Of a stretch of 64,000 bases of DNA, positions 4,683 to 10,852 are shown one piece after another. A program made the position numbers and the translations under genes. The notes below the pieces were generated by a model, which searched no databases, was not told where the DNA came from, and was given only the letters and a program-made list of their open reading frames with translations. Origin of the DNA: an uncultured Candidatus Saccharibacteria bacterium (GTDB lineage: Bacteria; Patescibacteriota; Minisyncoccia; Minisyncoccales; PEYH01); NCBI GenBank assembly GCA_964388775.1, contig CAYMBW010000001.1:71317-135316 (forward strand), read 5' to 3'. Each line of letters opens with the position of its first letter. The first letter of the stretch is position 1.

Positions 4683-5675
4683 TTGACAGGAGGAATTTCG
4701 AGAAAAGTCCCGAGCAAGGACTTTTCTTTGCGCAATATGCTTATTTTAATTTTTGGCAAAGATACATATAGAGGATGGCAAAAGCTTAAAGAGATAGTCG
4801 GCGATTTCGAGCAAGAGAACAATATTTCTTTGTCTTTGGATTCTTTGGAAAATGATACTTTTACAATAGAGGATTTGAAAAACGAATTAAGGCATGGCTC
4901 AATGTTTGAGAAAAAAAAGATAGTAGTTTTGAGGAACGGCTTTAGCAAGACGAACTTTAAAGAAGGGTTTATGAAAGAAATTAAAGGCCTATCAGGATAT
5001 AAAGATGCTTTAATGGTTTTTTATGAAGAAGGAGAGGCCTCAATAAATGCGGATTTTTTGAAACTTCTCAAGAAATACGGCGATGTTTACAAGTTCGATT
5101 TTTTAAAAGACAGCGACTTGAAAGAATGGGTTAAAAAAGAGTTATCTTTATTAGGGGCAAGGGTGAACCCGGATGCTCTGGCGTTATTAATTAATTCAAC
5201 GGGTGGCGACTTGTGGCGGTTATCAGCGGAGATTAAAAAACTTGTTGCCTATAAAGTGAGCGAGAAGAATATTGAGAAGAAAGACGTGGAGCTTTTAGTG
5301 AGGCCCAATGTTAATGCCGTGATTTTTAAAACCATTGATGCGATCGCCGCGGGAGACAAAAAAATCGCTCTTGATTTGATATATAGACATTTAGAAAAAG
5401 GCGATTCCCCGCTTTATCTCTTTTCAATGATAATATTTCAATTTAGAAATCTATTGGTTGTTAAAGAATTGGAGGAACGGTCTTTTGAAGAAAAAGTAAA
5501 AATTTTAAAACCTATGCGCCCTTTTGTGGTAAGAAAAAGCTCTTGGTTGGCGGGCAGGTTTTCTCTGAAGCAGCTACAAGACATCTATTTGAAAATTTTT
5601 AAGATGGATTTGGCGATTAAGAAGGGGAAAATAAAACCAGAGACAGCTCTGGAATTATTGGTTGCAGATATCTAA
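4683..5675 (+). CDS. holA: DNA polymerase III delta subunit; start probably the internal ATG near 4736
   Basis: Length and pattern (MLILIFGKDTY... C-terminal IDAIAAGDKKIALDLIYRHLEKGDSPLYLFSMIIFQFRNLL) typical of HolA; 5' end overlaps the preceding gene, so the start is uncertain. Confidence 0.65.
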   Translation: MTGGISRKVPSKDFSLRNMLILIFGKDTYRGWQKLKEIVGDFEQENNISLSLDSLENDTFTIEDLKNELRHGSMFEKKKIVVLRNGFSKTNFKEGFMKEIKGLSGYKDALMVFYEEGEASINADFLKLLKKYGDVYKFDFLKDSDLKEWVKKELSLLGARVNPDALALLINSTGGDLWRLSAEIKKLVAYKVSEKNIEKKDVELLVRPNVNAVIFKTIDAIAAGDKKIALDLIYRHLEKGDSPLYLFSMIIFQFRNLLVVKELEERSFEEKVKILKPMRPFVVRKSSWLAGRFSLKQLQDIYLKIFKMDLAIKKGKIKPETALELLVADI

Positions 5676-5716
5676 AAAGTGTTTGATTTCCGAAATCAGA
5701 CAATCTGATAAGTGTT

Positions 5717-5971
5717 TTATTTCAAAACCCGGGTAATGCTGGATTTTTTTCTGGCCGCCGTATTTTTCTTGATAACATTTTCTTTGGCCGCCTTGTCCAC
5801 CGCCTTATAATACTTAGAGAGCAGTTCGCGCGCTTCTTTTATTTTGTTTTCTTTTTGCAGAGCAAGGATTTGCTTTTGCAGTCCCTTAATGATTTTTTTG
5901 TAGCGCAAATTAGACGCTCTGTTTCGGCGCTCTTTTCTCAATGATTTAATGGCTGATTTTGTAATAGGCAT
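5717..5971 (-). CDS. rpsT: 30S ribosomal protein S20
   Basis: MPITKSAIKSLRKERRNRASNLRYKK...; ATG verified at 5969-5971 on the minus strand; the tool ORF carries a 5-aa upstream extension. Confidence 0.85.
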   Translation of the reverse strand: MPITKSAIKSLRKERRNRASNLRYKKIIKGLQKQILALQKENKIKEARELLSKYYKAVDKAAKENVIKKNTAARKKSSITRVLK

Positions 5972-6080
5972 GTTTCCTTTGGTCAAATTAAAAAATTAAA
6001 ATGAAAAATTAAGAATAAGAATAAAATATTTCTTGTGGTTAATACAATATCATACCCTTTATTTTTTTTCAAGCTTGAGC

Positions 6081-6118
6081 GGTTGAAAGCAAGCGGGGAA
6101 TAGGGAAATTAAATTTGA
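6081..6118 (+). repeat. promoter-like direct repeat, copy 1 (GTTGAAARCAAGCRGGRAATAGGG), upstream of the DGR
   Basis: About 30-nt core shared with 9375-9417 (4 mismatches); contains -35-like TTGAAA. Confidence 0.5.
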
Positions 6119-6126
6119 CTTTGTTT

Positions 6127-6162
6127 TGACAATGTGTTATGATGATGTTGTTATTATAATGA
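6127..6162 (+). promoter_or_regulatory. candidate promoter for the DGR target gene
   Basis: TTGACA followed 20-23 nt later by TATTATAAT; strong SD AAGGAGG 8 nt before the ATG at 6300. Confidence 0.3.
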
Positions 6163-6299
6163 AGTTCTTTGAAAAAAGAGGTTCAACCTTATGAGGCGAG
6201 TTCTTTGGGCGTCCCTCAAAAGGGATTTCTAAAGGTCTCGTCTCATAAAAGAGACAAGACGTTTATCCGAGCGAATCGGGTAAGCAAAACAAAAGGAGG

Positions 6300-7208
6300 A
6301 TGACGATGCCAAAAGCATTGATCACTAGCCGTGACGACAAAGGTCGTCATGCGGTCCACTTGTTCGAGATTGAGTATGACAAAGCAAGACTCGATGATGC
6401 ACGCGCGCAGCGGCTCAACGAGCGTGGAGGCGAACTCCAGGAAGGCATCGCAAAGCTCATCGCAGAGCTCTCGGTGTCCAACCGGTTCGCTGACGAGGAA
6501 ATGGAGTCGAGTTACACCTACCCAGGGGAGTACAAGGGGCCGAAGCCGATCGAGGAGCAGATCAAGGCAATCGCCAAGATCTTTGGACTTGACCCGAGTC
6601 AGGCGTTGGAATACGCCAAGAACTTGCCGGCGCTCCCCGAGGGTGCCGAAGGGTGGTTCGCAATCCCGTCGGTCGACGCACTTGCCAAGAGGCACTTCCC
6701 CGAAGTGACTGACCCGGTTGAGAAGTACTGCCGAGCTGTTCAGCTCGTTCACGCCAAGATCGCGGAATTTCGAACGTTCTGCAACTACCGCGAGGGGCAG
6801 ATCACACCTGACCACCTTCGGATGCATGCTCATACGGCACGCACACTCGAGCAGATCGCTGAGACGCAGAAGGGTGATATCCTAATCATCGCTGCTGAGC
6901 TCGGCATGAGGCACGGGAATCCGATTGCCCGCTCTGTTCGCAGAGCTCGTGAGGTTTTCATCGATAACGAGTTCGGCCTCGGATCAGTGGCAGGAGGATC
7001 CATCCTTCTGACTCATCCAGAGAGAGAGGTTCGATGGGAACAGCTTCACATGGTTCTTCCTGGCGATGAGTTTGCCCCGGGAGCCGGTGGCGATTTCTCG
7101 GGCGCGCCCTGCTTCTACTTCCACGACGGCAGGCTCGGGTTCGGCACGTACTGGCTCGACAATGCCAATCAGAACTATGGCTCGGCGTCCGGCTTTCTCC
7201 CGCAGTAG
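6300..7208 (+). CDS. DGR target (variable) protein with C-terminal variable repeat; no signal peptide; GC-rich relative to host
   Basis: Last 41 codons (AGGDFSGAPCFYFHDGRLGFGTYWLDNANQNYGSASGFLPQ) form the VR; gene is about 55-65% GC in a roughly 34% GC genome; SD AAGGAGG. Confidence 0.85.
   Translation: MTMPKALITSRDDKGRHAVHLFEIEYDKARLDDARAQRLNERGGELQEGIAKLIAELSVSNRFADEEMESSYTYPGEYKGPKPIEEQIKAIAKIFGLDPSQALEYAKNLPALPEGAEGWFAIPSVDALAKRHFPEVTDPVEKYCRAVQLVHAKIAEFRTFCNYREGQITPDHLRMHAHTARTLEQIAETQKGDILIIAAELGMRHGNPIARSVRRAREVFIDNEFGLGSVAGGSILLTHPEREVRWEQLHMVLPGDEFAPGAGGDFSGAPCFYFHDGRLGFGTYWLDNANQNYGSASGFLPQ
7083..7205 (+). repeat. DGR variable repeat (VR), 3' end of target gene
   Basis: 123 nt aligning with 7640-7762; 12 mismatches, every one at an A in the TR copy; identical GC-rich 3' end (IMH-like). 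Confidence 0.85.
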
Positions 7209-7282
7209 TACTTTGGACTCTTGGGACTTTTGAACCCTTTTGGGGGTTTGACTTCTTGTCTCGGGGGCTAACAAGACATCAA

Positions 7283-7325
7283 TGAGGGCTGTTCACCACG
7301 CATGACAGCCCTCACTCTTTTTTTA
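7283..7325 (+). terminator. rho-independent terminator after the target gene
   Basis: GAGGGCTGT-tcaccacgcatg-ACAGCCCTC followed by a T-run; preceded by a second hairpin TCTTGT-ctcgggggcta-ACAAGA (7252-7276). Confidence 0.6.
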
Positions 7326-7639
7326 TTTTCTAAACCTGATATACTGATAGACGAGTATAGGCTAATGTATGGCAGTTTACGCCCGCCTGCAGCGCTTTGC
7401 GCAGCAATGCGGGCAGGGATTGCTATCGCCGAACTCTCTCTTCAATAAAAAGAGATTAAACAACCAGAATCTTGACGACTACGGTTTTCAAGAGCGAGTT
7501 GTCTTGAGGAGATACTGCTTGCTCTTGTCTGGGGCAGATGCCTCGAGTTTATCGAGGGGCTGCTGCCGAATAAAATACAGGAAGAAAAGATTTTCTTAAC
7601 TTCCAGTGATATGGATGGACAAGGGCAAATTAACCGGAA

Positions 7640-7762
7640 GCCGATGGCGATTTCTCGAACGCGCCCTACTTCAACTTCAACGACGGCAAGCTCAAGTTCG
7701 ACACGAACTGGCTCGACAATGCCAATCAGAACTATGGCTCGGCGTCCGGCTTTCTCCCGAAG
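7640..7762 (+). repeat. DGR template repeat (TR)
   Basis: Encodes ADGDFSNAPYFNFNDGKLKFDTNWLDNANQNYGSASGFLPK in the VR frame; the variable codons are AAC, AAG, GAC, GAT and TAC; about 29 A residues, 12 substituted in the VR. Confidence 0.85.
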
Positions 7763-7765
7763 TCT

Positions 7766-7806
7766 CTTCTCAAAGAACAAAGAGTGTCTGTTTTAAGACA
7801 CTCTTT
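7766..7806. terminator. perfect 14-bp hairpin immediately 3' of the TR, also at the 3' end of avd on the minus strand
   Basis: AACAAAGAGTGTCT-gtttta-AGACACTCTTTGTT; possible bidirectional terminator or DGR structural element. Confidence 0.5.
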
Positions 7807-7815
7807 GTTTATCAG

Positions 7816-8166
7816 TTAATTATTCAAGGACCTTATCCAACCGCCGAGCATTCGGCCGATTTCATCAATTTCTTTTTCAATCAAGATATATTTTTTATTA
7901 TCCAATGCCTTTGTATCTTTTAATAAGCGCATAAATATGCGGAGCATATCAAGCATAGAATCAATATTTCTTAAATCTTTAAGTTTTTCATTTTTAGGAA
8001 GACGGCTTACTTTAAGAATGGACTCTATAATCTCAAGCAGGGCATCCTCTGTTTTTGCATATATCGTAAATCTGTCCTGTTTAGGAATCAGGTACCTGAA
8101 TTCATGAAGTAATTTGTATAATTCATACAACTTTTTGAAAATGGGGATTTCATCTTCAATATTCAT
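7816..8166 (-). CDS. avd: DGR accessory variability determinant (Avd-like four-helix-bundle protein)
   Basis: 116 aa; C-terminus EIDEIGRMLGGWIRSLNN and overall pattern match Bordetella bAvd / 23S-IVS four-helix-bundle family (EVGRILGSWIARVN). Confidence 0.75.
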   Translation of the reverse strand: MNIEDEIPIFKKLYELYKLLHEFRYLIPKQDRFTIYAKTEDALLEIIESILKVSRLPKNEKLKDLRNIDSMLDMLRIFMRLLKDTKALDNKKYILIEKEIDEIGRMLGGWIRSLNN

Positions 8167-8187
8167 TTCTTTTAATCTTAATTATAT

Positions 8188-9240
8188 ATGGACTTATTTA
8201 ATCAAATAATTTCTTTAGAGAATTTATTTTTGGCTTGGGATAAATTCAAGAAAGGAAAGGGGAATAAATTAGATGTCCAGGAATTTGAATTTAATCTTGA
8301 AAAGAATATATTCCAACTTCACAAGGATCTTAAAAATAGATGCTATATCCATTCGCCATATGAAAGTTTTTTTATTAAAGATCCGAAAAGAAGGAATATC
8401 CATAAGGCCACTGTCCGAGATCGTGTAGTCCATCATGCTATATTTGCGATAATTAACCCGATTTTTGAGCCGACCTTTATTTCCAATTCTTTCTCTTGTA
8501 GGGTTGGCAAGGGAAATCATAAAGGCGTAGATGCCCTCGCAAGAATGATAAGGAAAGCAAGTAATAATGGTTTTAAAAATTGTTTTATTCTTAAATGCGA
8601 TATTAAAAATTTTTTTGGAACAATTGACCATAGAATTTTATTAGACATTGTCCGCAAGCGGATAAAAGACGATGACTCAATGCGGCTCTTGGAAGAAATT
8701 ATTGAAAGTTTTTCTTCCCAATATTCAACTCTTTTTGAACGAAAAGGTTTGCCGATAGGCAATTTAACTTCTCAATTGTTTGCCAATATCTACCTTAATA
8801 AATTTGACCAATTTATTAAGCACAAATTAAGGATTAAGAATTATCTAAGATATACTGATGATTTTGTAATTTTATCAGGAGATAAAATCTATTTAGGAAA
8901 ACTTATCTCAACGATTAGTTTATTTCTCTCGGATAATCTTGCTCTTAAATTACATCCTAAAAAAGTTACAATTCGCAAATTTCATCAAGGGATAGATTTC
9001 CTTGGCTACATACTTCTGCCGCATTATCGTCTTCTGCGGGCGAAAACAAGACGGCGAATATTTAGAAAGATAGGGGAGCGAATTAGGGAATATAAAAATG
9101 GGACAATCAGTGAGCAGTCCCTCGTACAATCATTACAATCATATCTTGGCGTCCTATCACATGCTAATACATATGAGCTTGAACAAGAATTGAGAAATCA
9201 ATTTTGGTTTTGGCTCAATTCGGTTCCGTCAACCCGATAG
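8188..9240 (+). CDS. DGR reverse transcriptase
   Basis: RT motifs include the DGR-specific GLPIGNLTSQLFANIYL (I/LGxxxSQ) and YxDD box RYTDDFVIL; N-terminal LFLAWDKFKKGK. Confidence 0.9.
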   Translation: MDLFNQIISLENLFLAWDKFKKGKGNKLDVQEFEFNLEKNIFQLHKDLKNRCYIHSPYESFFIKDPKRRNIHKATVRDRVVHHAIFAIINPIFEPTFISNSFSCRVGKGNHKGVDALARMIRKASNNGFKNCFILKCDIKNFFGTIDHRILLDIVRKRIKDDDSMRLLEEIIESFSSQYSTLFERKGLPIGNLTSQLFANIYLNKFDQFIKHKLRIKNYLRYTDDFVILSGDKIYLGKLISTISLFLSDNLALKLHPKKVTIRKFHQGIDFLGYILLPHYRLLRAKTRRRIFRKIGERIREYKNGTISEQSLVQSLQSYLGVLSHANTYELEQELRNQFWFWLNSVPSTR

Positions 9241-9374
9241 TAAGCGATAGCACTCTTTCTATCCGTTCGTTCCATATGTTGCTACGCCACCTTGTTATGT
9301 GCGAGTCCTCTTTACATTGAGTGGAGCATAAAGTCAAATTTTGAAAATAATTGTTTGAAAATTATGGCGAGTGG

Positions 9375-9417
9375 GTAGTTGAAAACAAGCAGGAAATAGG
9401 GTAATATTAAAGTGGAT
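9375..9417 (+). promoter_or_regulatory. direct repeat copy 2 / sigma70-like promoter for the downstream toxin pair
   Basis: TTGAAA, 17 nt, TAATAT; homologous to 6081-6118. Confidence 0.45.
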
Positions 9418-9720
9418 ATGAAACAAATACCCCAATTTTTGCAGAAATATTTTTGGGATGTAGATTTTTTAACTCTAAATGTAAAACAGCATCCCCGATT
9501 TGTTATTGAGAGGATTTTAGAATACGGAGATAAAAAATCAATTAAATGGATGGAAGATAATTTTTCTTTAGGAGAAATTAAGAATACCCTTTTTATTTCT
9601 AAAAATCTTTCGCAAAAATCAGCCAATTTTTGGCAGCTTATTTTCGGCTTAGATAAAGATAAAATTCTATGCTTGAGGAAATCATTTCAAAAAAGACACA
9701 AAGCAATTTGGAGATATTAA
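9412..9720 (+). CDS. small protein upstream of nucleotidyltransferase, putative antitoxin partner (ATG at 9418)
   Basis: 102-aa ORF overlapping the next gene by about 50 nt in another frame (typical TA operon layout); no strong motif. Confidence 0.35.
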   Translation: MDMKQIPQFLQKYFWDVDFLTLNVKQHPRFVIERILEYGDKKSIKWMEDNFSLGEIKNTLFISKNLSQKSANFWQLIFGLDKDKILCLRKSFQKRHKAIWRY

Positions 9721-10283
9721 TAAAATCAGACATAATTGCCGATTTTTATCTTGCCGGCGGGACAGGGTTGGCTTTATATTTAAACCATCGCCTTTCCGTT
9801 GATTTAGATTTTTTTAGCAAAAAAGAATTTGATAATAAATCCCTGCTTCAAGAGATTAAAAAAATAGGCAAATTTTCAATCGGGAAAGAGTCGGAGAATA
9901 CTTTAGCGGGTGTTTTTAATGATACAAAAATCGCTTTTTTGACATACGATTATCCTCTTCTTTTTCCATTAAAAAAAATTAGAAATATTAACGTTGCCGA
10001 TATCAAAGACATTGCTTGTATGAAAATCTCCGCGATTTCTTCGCGGGGCAGTAAAAAAGATTTTATTGATTTATACTTTATTTGCCAGCAGGGCATTTCA
10101 TTAAAACAGGTATTAATGCTGTTTGGAAGAAAATACAGGGGCATTGATTATAATATGATGCATATTTTGAAAAGTTTGGTCTTTTTTAATGACGCCGATA
10201 GCGACCCTATGCCAAAAATGTTGGTTCCTGTTACTTGGGAACAGGTCAAGAAATTTTTTCAAGGAAAAGTAAAAACAAATTAA
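9669..10283 (+). CDS. nucleotidyltransferase of AbiEii/DUF1814-like toxin family (tentative)
   Basis: FYLAGGTGLALYLNHRLSVDLDFF matches the GGTAL...HRxSxDLDF nucleotidyltransferase signature. Confidence 0.5.
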   Translation: MLEEIISKKTQSNLEILIKSDIIADFYLAGGTGLALYLNHRLSVDLDFFSKKEFDNKSLLQEIKKIGKFSIGKESENTLAGVFNDTKIAFLTYDYPLLFPLKKIRNINVADIKDIACMKISAISSRGSKKDFIDLYFICQQGISLKQVLMLFGRKYRGIDYNMMHILKSLVFFNDADSDPMPKMLVPVTWEQVKKFFQGKVKTN

Positions 10284-10852
10284 TGATTTCTTTTATCAGA
10301 GGCAATATCAGAGCGAAAAATGAGGAATTTGTTATTGTCGAAAACAATGATATTGGTTTTAAGGTTTTTGTTTCTCCCAAGACCCTGGAAAAATTGAGTA
10401 TAGGAGAGACCGTAGAATTTTTTATCTTTTTTGCCATTCGCAACGAAAAACCGGAATTATATGGTTCCTTAAGCCAGGAAGAACTGAAAGTTTTTGAAAT
10501 AATAGAAAAAGTTTCCGGGGTCGGCCCCAAAGGAGCGATGCTTATTGCTTCATTGGGGACATTTGACGAGCTTAAAAAAGCGATAGAAATTCAAGATTTC
10601 GAATTTTTTTCCAAGATTAAAGGAATTGGGAAGAAAAAAATCCAAAAGATTATTTTAGAATTAGGCGGGACCATAAGAAGGATTGAAGAAATTGGAAACA
10701 AAGACCTTCAAAACGACGAAGCGTTTAAAGGATTGCTGGCATTAGGGTTTTCTTCCAAGGAAGCGGGAAAGGCGCTGGATAATGTTCCAAAGGATGTAAA
10801 AGACGCAAGCCAAAGGGTTCAGCAGGCCTTAAGGCGCTTCACAAAAAAATGA
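10283..10852 (+). CDS. ruvA: Holliday junction branch migration protein RuvA
   Basis: MISFIRGNI... OB fold, HhH motifs GVGPKGAMLIAS and IKGIGKKKIQKIILEL; ATG at 10283. Confidence 0.85.
   Translation: MISFIRGNIRAKNEEFVIVENNDIGFKVFVSPKTLEKLSIGETVEFFIFFAIRNEKPELYGSLSQEELKVFEIIEKVSGVGPKGAMLIASLGTFDELKKAIEIQDFEFFSKIKGIGKKKIQKIILELGGTIRRIEEIGNKDLQNDEAFKGLLALGFSSKEAGKALDNVPKDVKDASQRVQQALRRFTKK

Follow-up and report, generated by a model that had tools for sequence, protein, structure and literature searches.

A DGR of published architecture B3 from the CPR lineage and its apparently undescribed, conserved leader RNA 5' of the template repeat

The stretch of DNA analysed here (64 kb, the window) holds an intact diversity-generating retroelement (DGR), with adenine-specific differences between its template repeat (TR) and its variable repeat (VR), the VR at the 3' end of the target gene, a reverse transcriptase (RT) of the DGR clade and an Avd. 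The layout, target(VR)-TR-(inverted avd)-RT, is confirmed as the already published architecture B3 and as the norm of the lineage. More interesting than the inverted avd is, to judge from alignments of relatives, a leader that runs into the TR from its 5' side and appears to be a conserved folded RNA, apparently undescribed. The genes and repeats of the cassette are:

6300-7208, plus strand: DGR target gene, 302 aa (ORF list; VR at its 3' end)
7077-7206, plus strand: VR, a 130-nt direct repeat of the TR with 90% identity
7634-7763, plus strand: TR, from the 130-nt repeat pair with the VR
7816-8166, minus strand: avd accessory gene, 116 aa, ATG start (PF22296 and NF033474 matches)
8167-8187, between the strands: divergent intergenic gap, 21 nt (avd ATG at 8166, RT ATG at 8188)
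8188-9240, plus strand: DGR reverse transcriptase, 350 aa, motif IGNLTSQ (RVT_1, PDB 8ub7)

All the TR/VR mismatches (13/13) lie opposite TR adenines, the VR ends within the stop codon of the ORF at 6300-7208, and the final ~57 nt of the repeat (7150-7206), where IMH and IMH* would be expected, show a single VR/TR difference, at position 7203, in spite of the adenines that they contain. The target gene, which has no family in Pfam or NCBIfam, has a GC content of 56-60% compared to ~33% in its surroundings; a promoter-like site lies upstream of it (6115-6143, score 10/12), and a hairpin is present downstream of the VR (7230-7251). There was no second Avd, RT, TR or VR in the 64 kb.

The RT ORF matches RVT_1 (E 1.2e-21); its best match among solved structures, over the full length, is 8ub7 'Reverse transcriptase' (E 1.9e-42, versus 9e-26 for the group II intron RTs, which rank behind it among the PDB matches), and it falls under all the NCBIfam cut-offs for group II, retron and DRT RTs. 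The IGNLTSQ of this protein fits the [I/L]GxxxSQ motif, which we take to be diagnostic of DGR-clade RTs. These similarities place the RT in the DGR clade, nearer to the BPP-1 bRT than to the group II intron or retron RTs. The comparison set comprised 80 RT relatives, nearly all of them from Patescibacteria/CPR MAGs; the closest are found in Kuenenbacteria MAGs (71% identity), and on this evidence the window DGR would belong to the CPR lineage of DGRs.

The original prediction placed avd on the strand opposite to the RT, divergent from it across a 21-bp gap, and the coordinates listed above agree with it on both points. The minus-strand ORF is homologous to Avd by two curated HMMs, with scores above the cut-off in both cases: Pfam PF22296 bAvd (E 5.2e-19, 69.1 bits, cut-off 40); and the equivalog NCBIfam NF033474 DivGenRetAVD (86 bits, cut-off 80). 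When the Avd profile was run against all the six-frame ORFs of the 64 kb, this ORF was the sole match, with no Avd-like ORF on the plus strand; the search for a co-directional Avd, as the true accessory gene, included the VR-TR spacer (the canonical place of avd), and none was found. The ORFs present in this spacer showed no Pfam match at E<=10 and no conservation among the relatives. Third-codon entropy is 1.3-1.6 bits along the entire avd, with at most a slight dip at both ends, and such free wobble positions are typical of purifying selection acting on the protein. Two observations speak for the minus-strand ORF being a decaying or unrelated four-helix-bundle gene, with the true accessory factor elsewhere or absent: its weak sequence similarity to the BPP-1 Avd (the top PDB match of the product is 4dwl, Bbp7, with an E of 0.22), and the fact that avd is altogether missing from 26% of DGRs. 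Against them stand the intact ORF, above the cut-offs of two independent models, the retention of avd at the same position in 64 relatives with its wobble positions free, and the lack of any other Avd-like ORF in the 64 kb or of conserved ORFs in the spacer; this explanation is therefore hardly credible.

The order of the genes had been presented as a departure from the described DGRs, an idea that does not survive the comparison with the published architecture classes: the window corresponds to B3, whose definition is TR-(avd)-RT with a reverse-strand avd and which makes up 90% of the CPR-set DGRs (n=126; Wu et al. 2018, Nucleic Acids Res, PMC5758913). In the window the TR and the RT are on the plus strand and avd is on the minus strand, without a further accessory gene. 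The CPR-set B3 cassettes share with the window the order and orientation, the single adjacent upstream target and the inverted avd between TR and RT, and there is no difference in layout; the published B3 description (PMC5758913) does not mention a structured leader 5' of the TR. Of the 66 relatives with a detectable Avd, 64 carry it in inverted orientation right next to the start of the RT, and the only two with a co-directional avd are non-CPR MAGs with an RT identity of 33-35%. The TR lies on the RT strand, right before the 3' end of avd, in about 50 loci, and TR and RT have the same orientation in about 50/52. BPP-1 and most of the non-CPR DGRs do have avd, TR and RT co-directional, which is the one argument for a non-canonical, previously undescribed DGR architecture; with B3 already published for nine tenths of the CPR set and the same layout in nearly all the relatives examined, we consider such a novelty very improbable.

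The gap between avd and the RT is 21 nt in the window and 0-11 nt in close relatives, and it is larger in the window because the window RT lacks the MKIY N-terminal extension. A perfect TATAAT is located on the minus strand (8186->8181), 14 nt upstream of the avd ATG, and is a candidate avd promoter. For the RT, no clear -35/-10 pair and no Shine-Dalgarno were found in the 0-21 nt gap of the window and its relatives. An RT promoter inside the avd coding sequence, as originally proposed, is plausible, the alternative being read-through from the TR unit, which explains the missing promoter equally well. The consensus promoter scan stays close to background in this AT-rich DNA (12 sites vs 8.1 expected). 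In a more distant subclade, a TAGAAT box is located within the gap, 7-13 nt upstream of the RT ATG, and suggests that the RT has its own promoter there.

The region between the target gene and avd contains, besides the TR, the following elements:

7283-7329, plus strand: terminator-like hairpin of the target gene; TGAGGGCTGT (7283-7292) pairs with ACAGCCCTCA (7305-7314), then a T-run
7337-7345, plus strand: extended -10-like box TGATATACT, candidate promoter of the TR RNA (sequence inspection)
7355-7633, plus strand: structured leader RNA, ~280 nt, running into the TR (covariation in alignments)
7360-62/7428-30, plus strand: leader helix H1 (alignment A1)
7367-78/7417-27, plus strand: leader helix H2 (alignment A1)
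7461-64/7498-7501, plus strand: leader helix H3 (alignment A1)
7470-79/7484-93, plus strand: leader helix H4 (alignment A1)
7519-30/7617-28, plus strand: leader helix H5 (alignment A1)
7534-44/7556-66, plus strand: leader helix H6 (alignment A1)
7567-79, plus strand: near-invariant unpaired leader stretch CGAAUAAAAUACA, A-rich (alignment A1)
7580-84/7600-04, plus strand: leader helix H7 (alignment A1)
7775-7810, either strand: 15-bp stem-loop common to the convergent TR RNA and avd (inverted repeat, conserved position)

The fold of the leader is carried by covariation. In alignment A1 (22 loci), compensatory changes occur at 48/57 pairs and 97.5% of the cells are paired, compared to 42-50% in the slid controls; the observed values were reached by 0/500 shuffles, and the MFE z-score of the leader is -5.0. 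An independent alignment of 19 loci from the more distant subclade has the same domain plan, with 34/46 pairs compensatory. In all the loci where the leader was detected (46/46), it is on the same strand as the TR and directly adjoins it. The H7-H9 arm is shortened in the window, and this arm therefore cannot be essential. One domain of the leader is designated by its sequence, GAAUAAAAU. Between the target gene and the leader lie a terminator-like hairpin and a promoter-like block: the relatives have a homologous hairpin and T-run in the same place as 7283-7329, the probable terminator of the target gene, and an AT-rich TATAAA/ATAnAAT block directly upstream of the conserved leader start, where the box at 7337-7345 would be the promoter of the TR RNA.

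Rfam 15 gave no relevant covariance-model match at E<=1 in the window interval 5500-10500, and this includes RT-1 to RT-19, the motifs of structured RNAs described beside bacterial reverse-transcriptase genes (Weinberg et al. 2017, PMC5737381). Two eukaryotic Rfam matches located elsewhere in the interval were attributed to chance. Scanning viral contigs with the invariant 15-mer of the leader produced 44 matches, also due to chance, none of them accompanied by a leader, an RT or an Avd. No description of the leader was found in the full-text literature searched, a scope outside which falls Paul et al. 2017 (CPR/DPANN DGRs, Nat Microbiol).

On the other side of the TR, the hairpin announced by the original prediction exists, although the positions given for it (7766-7806) were several bases off: its perfect 14-bp arms lie at 7776-7789 and 7796-7809, G7775-U7810 extends them to 15 bp, and the loop has 6 nt. 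The hairpin begins 12 nt past the TR and ends 5 nt from the avd stop codon. When the 70 nt that follow the TR were shuffled, a stem of equal length appeared in 0/300 cases. The TR is followed by a significant hairpin of 10-17 bp in 24/29 close relatives, the stems covarying and differing in sequence, and in the distant subclade the hairpin is still there, overlapping the avd stop codon. The window hairpin has U-rich tails on both strands; the 8 nt past the GC core contain five or more T in 14/25 hairpins on the plus strand and in 11/25 on the minus strand, and termination at this point may be leaky or absent. By analogy, 7775-7810 is a candidate Avd-binding stem-loop, a candidate bidirectional terminator, or both. 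The interval from TR to RT is, as claimed, mostly antisense avd. Scanning the relatives, no covarying helix was found joining the post-hairpin sequence or the antisense avd to the leader or the TR, the only signals being A/T-run artefacts; together with the free wobble positions, this suggests that the antisense avd is under no RNA-level constraint. Inspection by eye likewise showed no convincing priming duplex of 4-6 nt, conserved across the relatives, that would join the post-hairpin sequence to the 3' end of the TR; 4 bp are too few to be detected in this way.

The reference for these elements is BPP-1, whose order is mtd-avd-TR-spacer-brt (Handa et al. 2018, PMC6182149; preprint 10.1101/2023.10.23.563531). 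In its RNA, the Avd-binding stem-loop is Sp3-33, with 11 bp; the priming adenosine lies 23 nt beyond it; and an 11-bp stop duplex adjoins the TR 5' end, after which come a stem-loop, adenosines that are unpaired, and the long stem-loop that binds the RT (10.1101/2023.10.23.563531). The window resembles BPP-1 in its homologous RT (the 8ub7 match), its Avd of the same family, the adenine-specific TR/VR differences, the stem-loop right after the TR (15 bp in the window), and a duplex of 11-12 bp that ends close to the TR on its 5' side; after the duplex strand come, in order, a stem-loop, unpaired A-rich sequence and another stem-loop arm. The BPP-1-type stem-loop directly 3' of the TR was thus found in the window, in most of the close relatives and in the distant subclade, its binding of Avd being putative. 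The differences are that avd precedes the TR in BPP-1, whereas in the window it is inverted between TR and RT; that a conserved spacer RNA of 140 nt on the 3' side of the TR is absent from the window; and that the ~280-nt leader, on the 5' side of the TR, holds both strands of the window duplex and the elements following it, besides an additional 5' domain (H1-H4). The BPP-1-type pairing of the 3' spacer with the sequence 5' of the TR was not found in the window, where the latter sequence pairs within the leader, in H5. The correspondence between the two RNAs is a likeness in order and position, with no sequence homology shown. If the BPP-1 priming geometry holds, the RNA must reach at least ~20 nt into the antisense avd.

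We consider it probable that the cassette works as four units, with a stand-alone template RNA that Avd and RT bind in trans. The analysis shows the gene identities, the adenine-specific TR/VR differences, the conserved layout and the covariation in leader and hairpin; where the transcripts end, that the RNA acts in trans and what its elements do is inferred. The target gene would be transcribed from its own promoter-like site to its own terminator; the template RNA (~460 nt) would run from the box near 7340 through the leader and the TR to the stem-loop at 7775-7810; avd, on the minus strand, would converge on this same stem-loop; and the RT would be expressed back-to-back with avd, divergent from it. 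The post-TR stem-loop would be, by analogy, the counterpart of the BPP-1 Avd-binding stem-loop, and the 12-bp closing duplex of the leader, which ends 5 nt upstream of the TR, that of the BPP-1 duplex at which cDNA synthesis stops, on the 5' edge of the TR. The scaffold RNA, located 3' of the TR in BPP-1 (the 140-nt spacer), would here be placed 5' of it, so that an antisense avd between TR and RT would do no harm. The proposal of the original prediction, a template RNA with its end at the hairpin and an action in trans, remains a prediction, supported by the hairpins of the close relatives (24/29), the inverted TR module of locus L026 described below, the apparently unconstrained antisense avd and the folded RNA 5' of the TR; the end at the hairpin fares less well, with a clear U-tract in about half of the hairpins. 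A broader generalisation, by which the template RNA of CPR-type (B3) DGRs is permuted, with the protein-binding scaffold in a conserved ~250-280-nt 5' leader and only the Avd-binding stem-loop 3' of the TR, is offered tentatively; in BPP-1 terms, the permuted scaffold might comprise the partner strand of the stop duplex, the small stem-loop, the unpaired adenosines and the RT-binding arm, an assignment about which we are somewhat doubtful.

The main alternative is a plus-strand transcript that starts before the leader and reads through the hairpin and the antisense avd into the RT, with co-transcription of TR and RT as in BPP-1, the hairpin serving only as a protein-binding stem-loop and the RT lacking a promoter of its own. 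In its favour are the short distance from the avd start codon to that of the RT, where the RT has neither a clear -35/-10 pair nor a Shine-Dalgarno; the strand shared by TR and RT in about 50 loci; the hairpins (about half) without a good U-tract; and the Avd-binding stem-loops predicted after the TR in 207/278 DGRs, CPR included (Handa et al., 10.1101/2023.10.23.563531). In L026, however, the target-leader-TR-hairpin module is inverted relative to avd and RT, the hairpin staying with the TR, and 18/19 of the TR/VR differences are still adenine-specific; TR-RT co-transcription is therefore not obligatory in the lineage. In another locus, L028, an insertion of ~1.4 kb separates the leader and TR from avd; the TAGAAT box of the distant subclade suggests an RT promoter there; read-through would be expected to collide head-on with avd transcription; and the antisense avd appears to be free of RNA-level constraint. 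Co-transcription by read-through is, on this balance, rather unlikely, both as regards the transcript itself and as regards a hairpin limited to protein binding and an RT without its own promoter, and the four-unit cassette remains the reading that we favour. The shared orientation of TR and RT in the relatives could reflect selection for co-transcription and not plain inheritance, an observation that weighs against an independent TR unit.

The inverted avd itself changes nothing, being part of the standard CPR DGR layout, and to say so keeps it from being taken wrongly for a novelty; what deserves further work is the leader RNA, which may matter for the study and the engineering of DGRs. The mechanism of the DGR ribonucleoprotein is known from one phage element only, in which the scaffold RNA is downstream of the template. 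A large bacterial radiation appears to build its template RNA differently, as a self-contained gene with a promoter-like box, a strongly covarying 5' scaffold and a 3' stem-loop, and this gene appears to be separable from the RT and avd genes. If true, the permuted RNA would explain the inverted avd between TR and RT across the whole radiation, and would constitute an undescribed class without an Rfam family, a compact stand-alone gene for a trans-acting template RNA. If confirmed, it would provide a natural trans-acting template cassette for programmable mutagenesis, and a second, independent RNA architecture for testing which of the ribonucleoprotein contacts are universal.

The region 6300-9240 is a complete DGR cassette, with these features along the window:

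6300-7208, plus strand: target ORF, carrying the VR at its end
7077-7206: VR (130 nt), at the 3' end of ORF 6300-7208
7283-7329: terminator-like hairpin and T-run, after the target gene
7337-7345: AT-rich promoter-like block, TGATATACT
7355-7633: leader, a ~280-nt element continuous into the TR
7519-7530 with 7617-7628: closing duplex of the leader, ending 5 nt before the TR
7567-7579: invariant unpaired stretch within the leader, CGAAUAAAAUACA
7634-7763: TR, repeat partner of the VR
7816-8166, minus strand: avd ORF (116 aa), with Pfam and NCBIfam matches
8188-9240, plus strand: RT ORF, with an RVT_1 match and the IGNLTSQ motif

The TR and the VR differ at 13 positions, all of them adenines in the TR. 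The minus-strand ORF scored above the cut-offs of Pfam bAvd (PF22296; E 5e-19, 69 bits, cut-off 40) and of the NCBIfam equivalog DivGenRetAVD (NF033474; 86 bits, cut-off 80), confirming the Avd homology that had been proposed for checking by HMM; the top solved-structure match of the RT was 8ub7 (E 1.9e-42), with group II intron RTs far behind. Since all the cassette elements are present as listed, the original prediction was right in placing avd opposite to the RT, with 21 nt between the start codons (8166 and 8188). No plus-strand Avd-like ORF that might be the true accessory gene was found in the window, nor was a second Avd, RT, TR or VR. The predicted hairpin after the TR also exists, but at slightly different coordinates: its perfect 14-bp arms (7776-7789/7796-7809; 15 bp counting a terminal G-U) lie 12 nt past the TR and 5 nt short of the avd stop codon, and shuffled local sequence never gave a stem as long. 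Directly 3' of the RT (9412-10283), a DUF6922 ORF (E 6e-15) overlaps an AbiEii nucleotidyltransferase toxin ORF (E 7e-17); together they resemble a toxin-antitoxin pair of type IV.

Canonical cassettes have avd between the VR and the TR, and the layout seen here had been taken as a departure from described DGRs. This did not hold: among the 372 DGRs sorted into architecture classes by Wu et al. 2018 (PMC5758913), it corresponds to B3, 'TR-(avd)-RT' (parentheses denoting the reverse strand). The same study notes that two or more transcription units are needed when components are on different strands. One genome per species was scanned, which gave 80 loci encoding relatives of the window RT (top identity 71%), nearly all in Patescibacteria/CPR MAGs. 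An Avd homologue could be detected at 66 loci; at 64 it was opposite to the RT strand and abutted the start of the RT, and the remaining two, both co-directional, were the most distant and non-CPR (Muribaculaceae, Clostridia; RT identity 33-35%). In about 50 loci the TR shared the strand of the RT and immediately preceded the avd 3' end, with the VR 480-560 nt upstream. What was observed for avd is correct, and the architecture is a known one, typical of the lineage. In one relative's locus (L012:1-470), another TR/VR-like pair (366-427 versus 1-62), whose differences fall at adenines in 9 of 9 cases, precedes the main cassette by ~3.5 kb. It is accompanied by a plus-strand match to Avd that is weak (25% identity), and may be a second DGR.

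The divergent starts were compared using window 8160-8200 and an alignment of 25 loci. The 21-nt gap is rather long (0-11 nt in close relatives), the junction reads CATATG in four loci (L019, L023, L024, L031), and an extension of four codons, MKIY, has been lost from the window RT. No Shine-Dalgarno sequence was found at the back-to-back starts in this alignment. The window has a perfect minus-strand TATAAT (8186->8181), 14 nt upstream of the avd ATG, and relatives encode TATAAA within RT codons 3-5. Taken together, these features hint that the divergent promoters overlap and that the mRNAs are (near-)leaderless. In the distant subclade (loci L034-L061), 6-11 consecutive G in the gap are followed by a TAGAAT-like box, 7-13 nt upstream of the RT ATG.

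Base composition also varied along the locus (window 6250-7800 compared with 7800-9300 and flanks): GC was 45-60% in the target gene, leader and TR, and 30-40% in avd, RT and chromosomal flanks, the same pattern appearing in ~50 loci. Recent transfer does not account for the contrast, since it is still seen at RT identities as low as 45%, and the positive AT skew of the target argues against adenine depletion.

The VR-TR spacer (7209-7633) is conserved in sequence and in length (mostly 330-400 nt in relatives). In its first part, relatives repeat the motif CTTGA(A/G) three to four times within ~70 nt of the VR, and the window (7209-7282) has a small GC hairpin at 7230-7251 just downstream of the VR; these may serve in recognition of the target site, comparable to the hairpin that follows the IMH. 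The remainder is dominated by the leader, for which RNAalifold on a 22-locus alignment predicted 57 base pairs, 48 of them with compensatory double changes (16-21 after sliding the 3' partners by 1-3 columns). With the structure held fixed, standard pairs filled 97.5% of cells, compared with 42-50% after sliding, and none of 500 column shuffles reached the observed value of any measure. The window's own sequence folded into the same helices (z-score -5.0), and no reading frame of the leader stays open across relatives. When 19 loci of a subclade further away (RT identity 45-52%) were aligned independently, the same plan emerged, with compensatory changes in 34 of 46 pairs: hairpins at the 5' end precede a long-range duplex of 12 bp, which closes right before the TR and encloses a small stem-loop, the near-invariant stretch GAAUAAnAU and another stem-loop. 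A leader sequence profile matched in 46 loci (homologues of ~250-280 nt, among L001-L077, the RT-relative loci), always on the TR strand and adjoining the TR 5' end. Neither an Rfam family matching the leader nor an earlier description in the searchable literature was found.

In BPP-1, a functional template RNA includes 20 nt of avd upstream of the TR and, downstream, 140 nt out of a spacer of 144 nt (PMC6182149). In the cryo-EM preprint (10.1101/2023.10.23.563531), the 11-bp stem-loop formed by Sp3-33 right after the TR is bound by the Avd pentamer; Sp53-56 base-pairs to the 3' region of the TR, A56 being the primer; Sp59-70 and avd369-379, just before the TR, form the duplex stopping cDNA synthesis; and next come a short stem-loop, adenosines that stay unpaired and make A-minor contacts, and a long stem-loop that binds the RT. 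Of 278 DGRs with an Avd, those of CPR among them, that study predicted a post-TR stem-loop for 207; upstream of the TR it examined 40 nt only (10.1101/2023.10.23.563531). The window's 3' stem-loop resembles the Avd-binding element in position and form, and the leader 3' domain follows the order of Sp59-139 (duplex strand, stem-loop, A-rich unpaired stretch, stem-loop arm), its duplex ending beside the TR 5' edge; in contrast to BPP-1, both duplex strands lie upstream of the TR. The arm H7-H9 varies among relatives and is truncated in the window. Tentatively, the leader/TR RNA could be a permuted version of the BPP-1-type RNA, a likeness of order and position rather than proven homology.

The proposal that the template RNA ends at the hairpin and acts in trans was partly supported by comparison. 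One line of support is the leader itself, which keeps its place and strand next to the TR in all 46 loci where the profile matched. In L026:2063-3993 the target-leader-TR-hairpin block is inverted relative to avd/RT, so that avd, target and TR are co-directional and the RT alone diverges; this TR shows adenine-specific differences to two VRs (18/19 and 12/13) and still has a 13-bp hairpin 3' of it, though no avd converges on it. In L028:833-2757 an insertion of ~1.4 kb, possibly a mobile element, separates the TR unit from avd. (It interrupts the post-TR hairpin just beyond the loop and carries two minus-strand ORFs of 298 and 144 aa.) TR/RT co-transcription is therefore no requirement in this lineage, and the hairpin is part of the TR unit. 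Post-TR stems of 10-17 bp occurred in 24 of 29 close relatives (<=1% of shuffles) with quite different stem sequences, and the distant subclade keeps the hairpin, overlapping the avd stop codon.

Alternatively, the plus-strand transcript might continue past the hairpin into the RT. The TR is on the same strand as the RT in nearly all loci, a good U-tract (either strand) accompanies just about half of the post-TR hairpins, and the RT promoter was searched for and could not be located, all of which speak against a clean stop. On the other side, no covarying helix joins the antisense-avd stretch to the leader or TR, and avd third-codon positions are free over the whole gene (1.3-1.6 bits), so no BPP-1-like structured spacer is seen in antisense avd. 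Together with the rearranged loci, we consider read-through unlikely, and an independent template-RNA unit, stopping at the hairpin and acting in trans, the probable arrangement as judged from sequence comparison.

The leader 5' of the TR is the result worth following up, by RACE and reconstitution; with it, the template RNA of CPR DGRs looks like a stand-alone gene.
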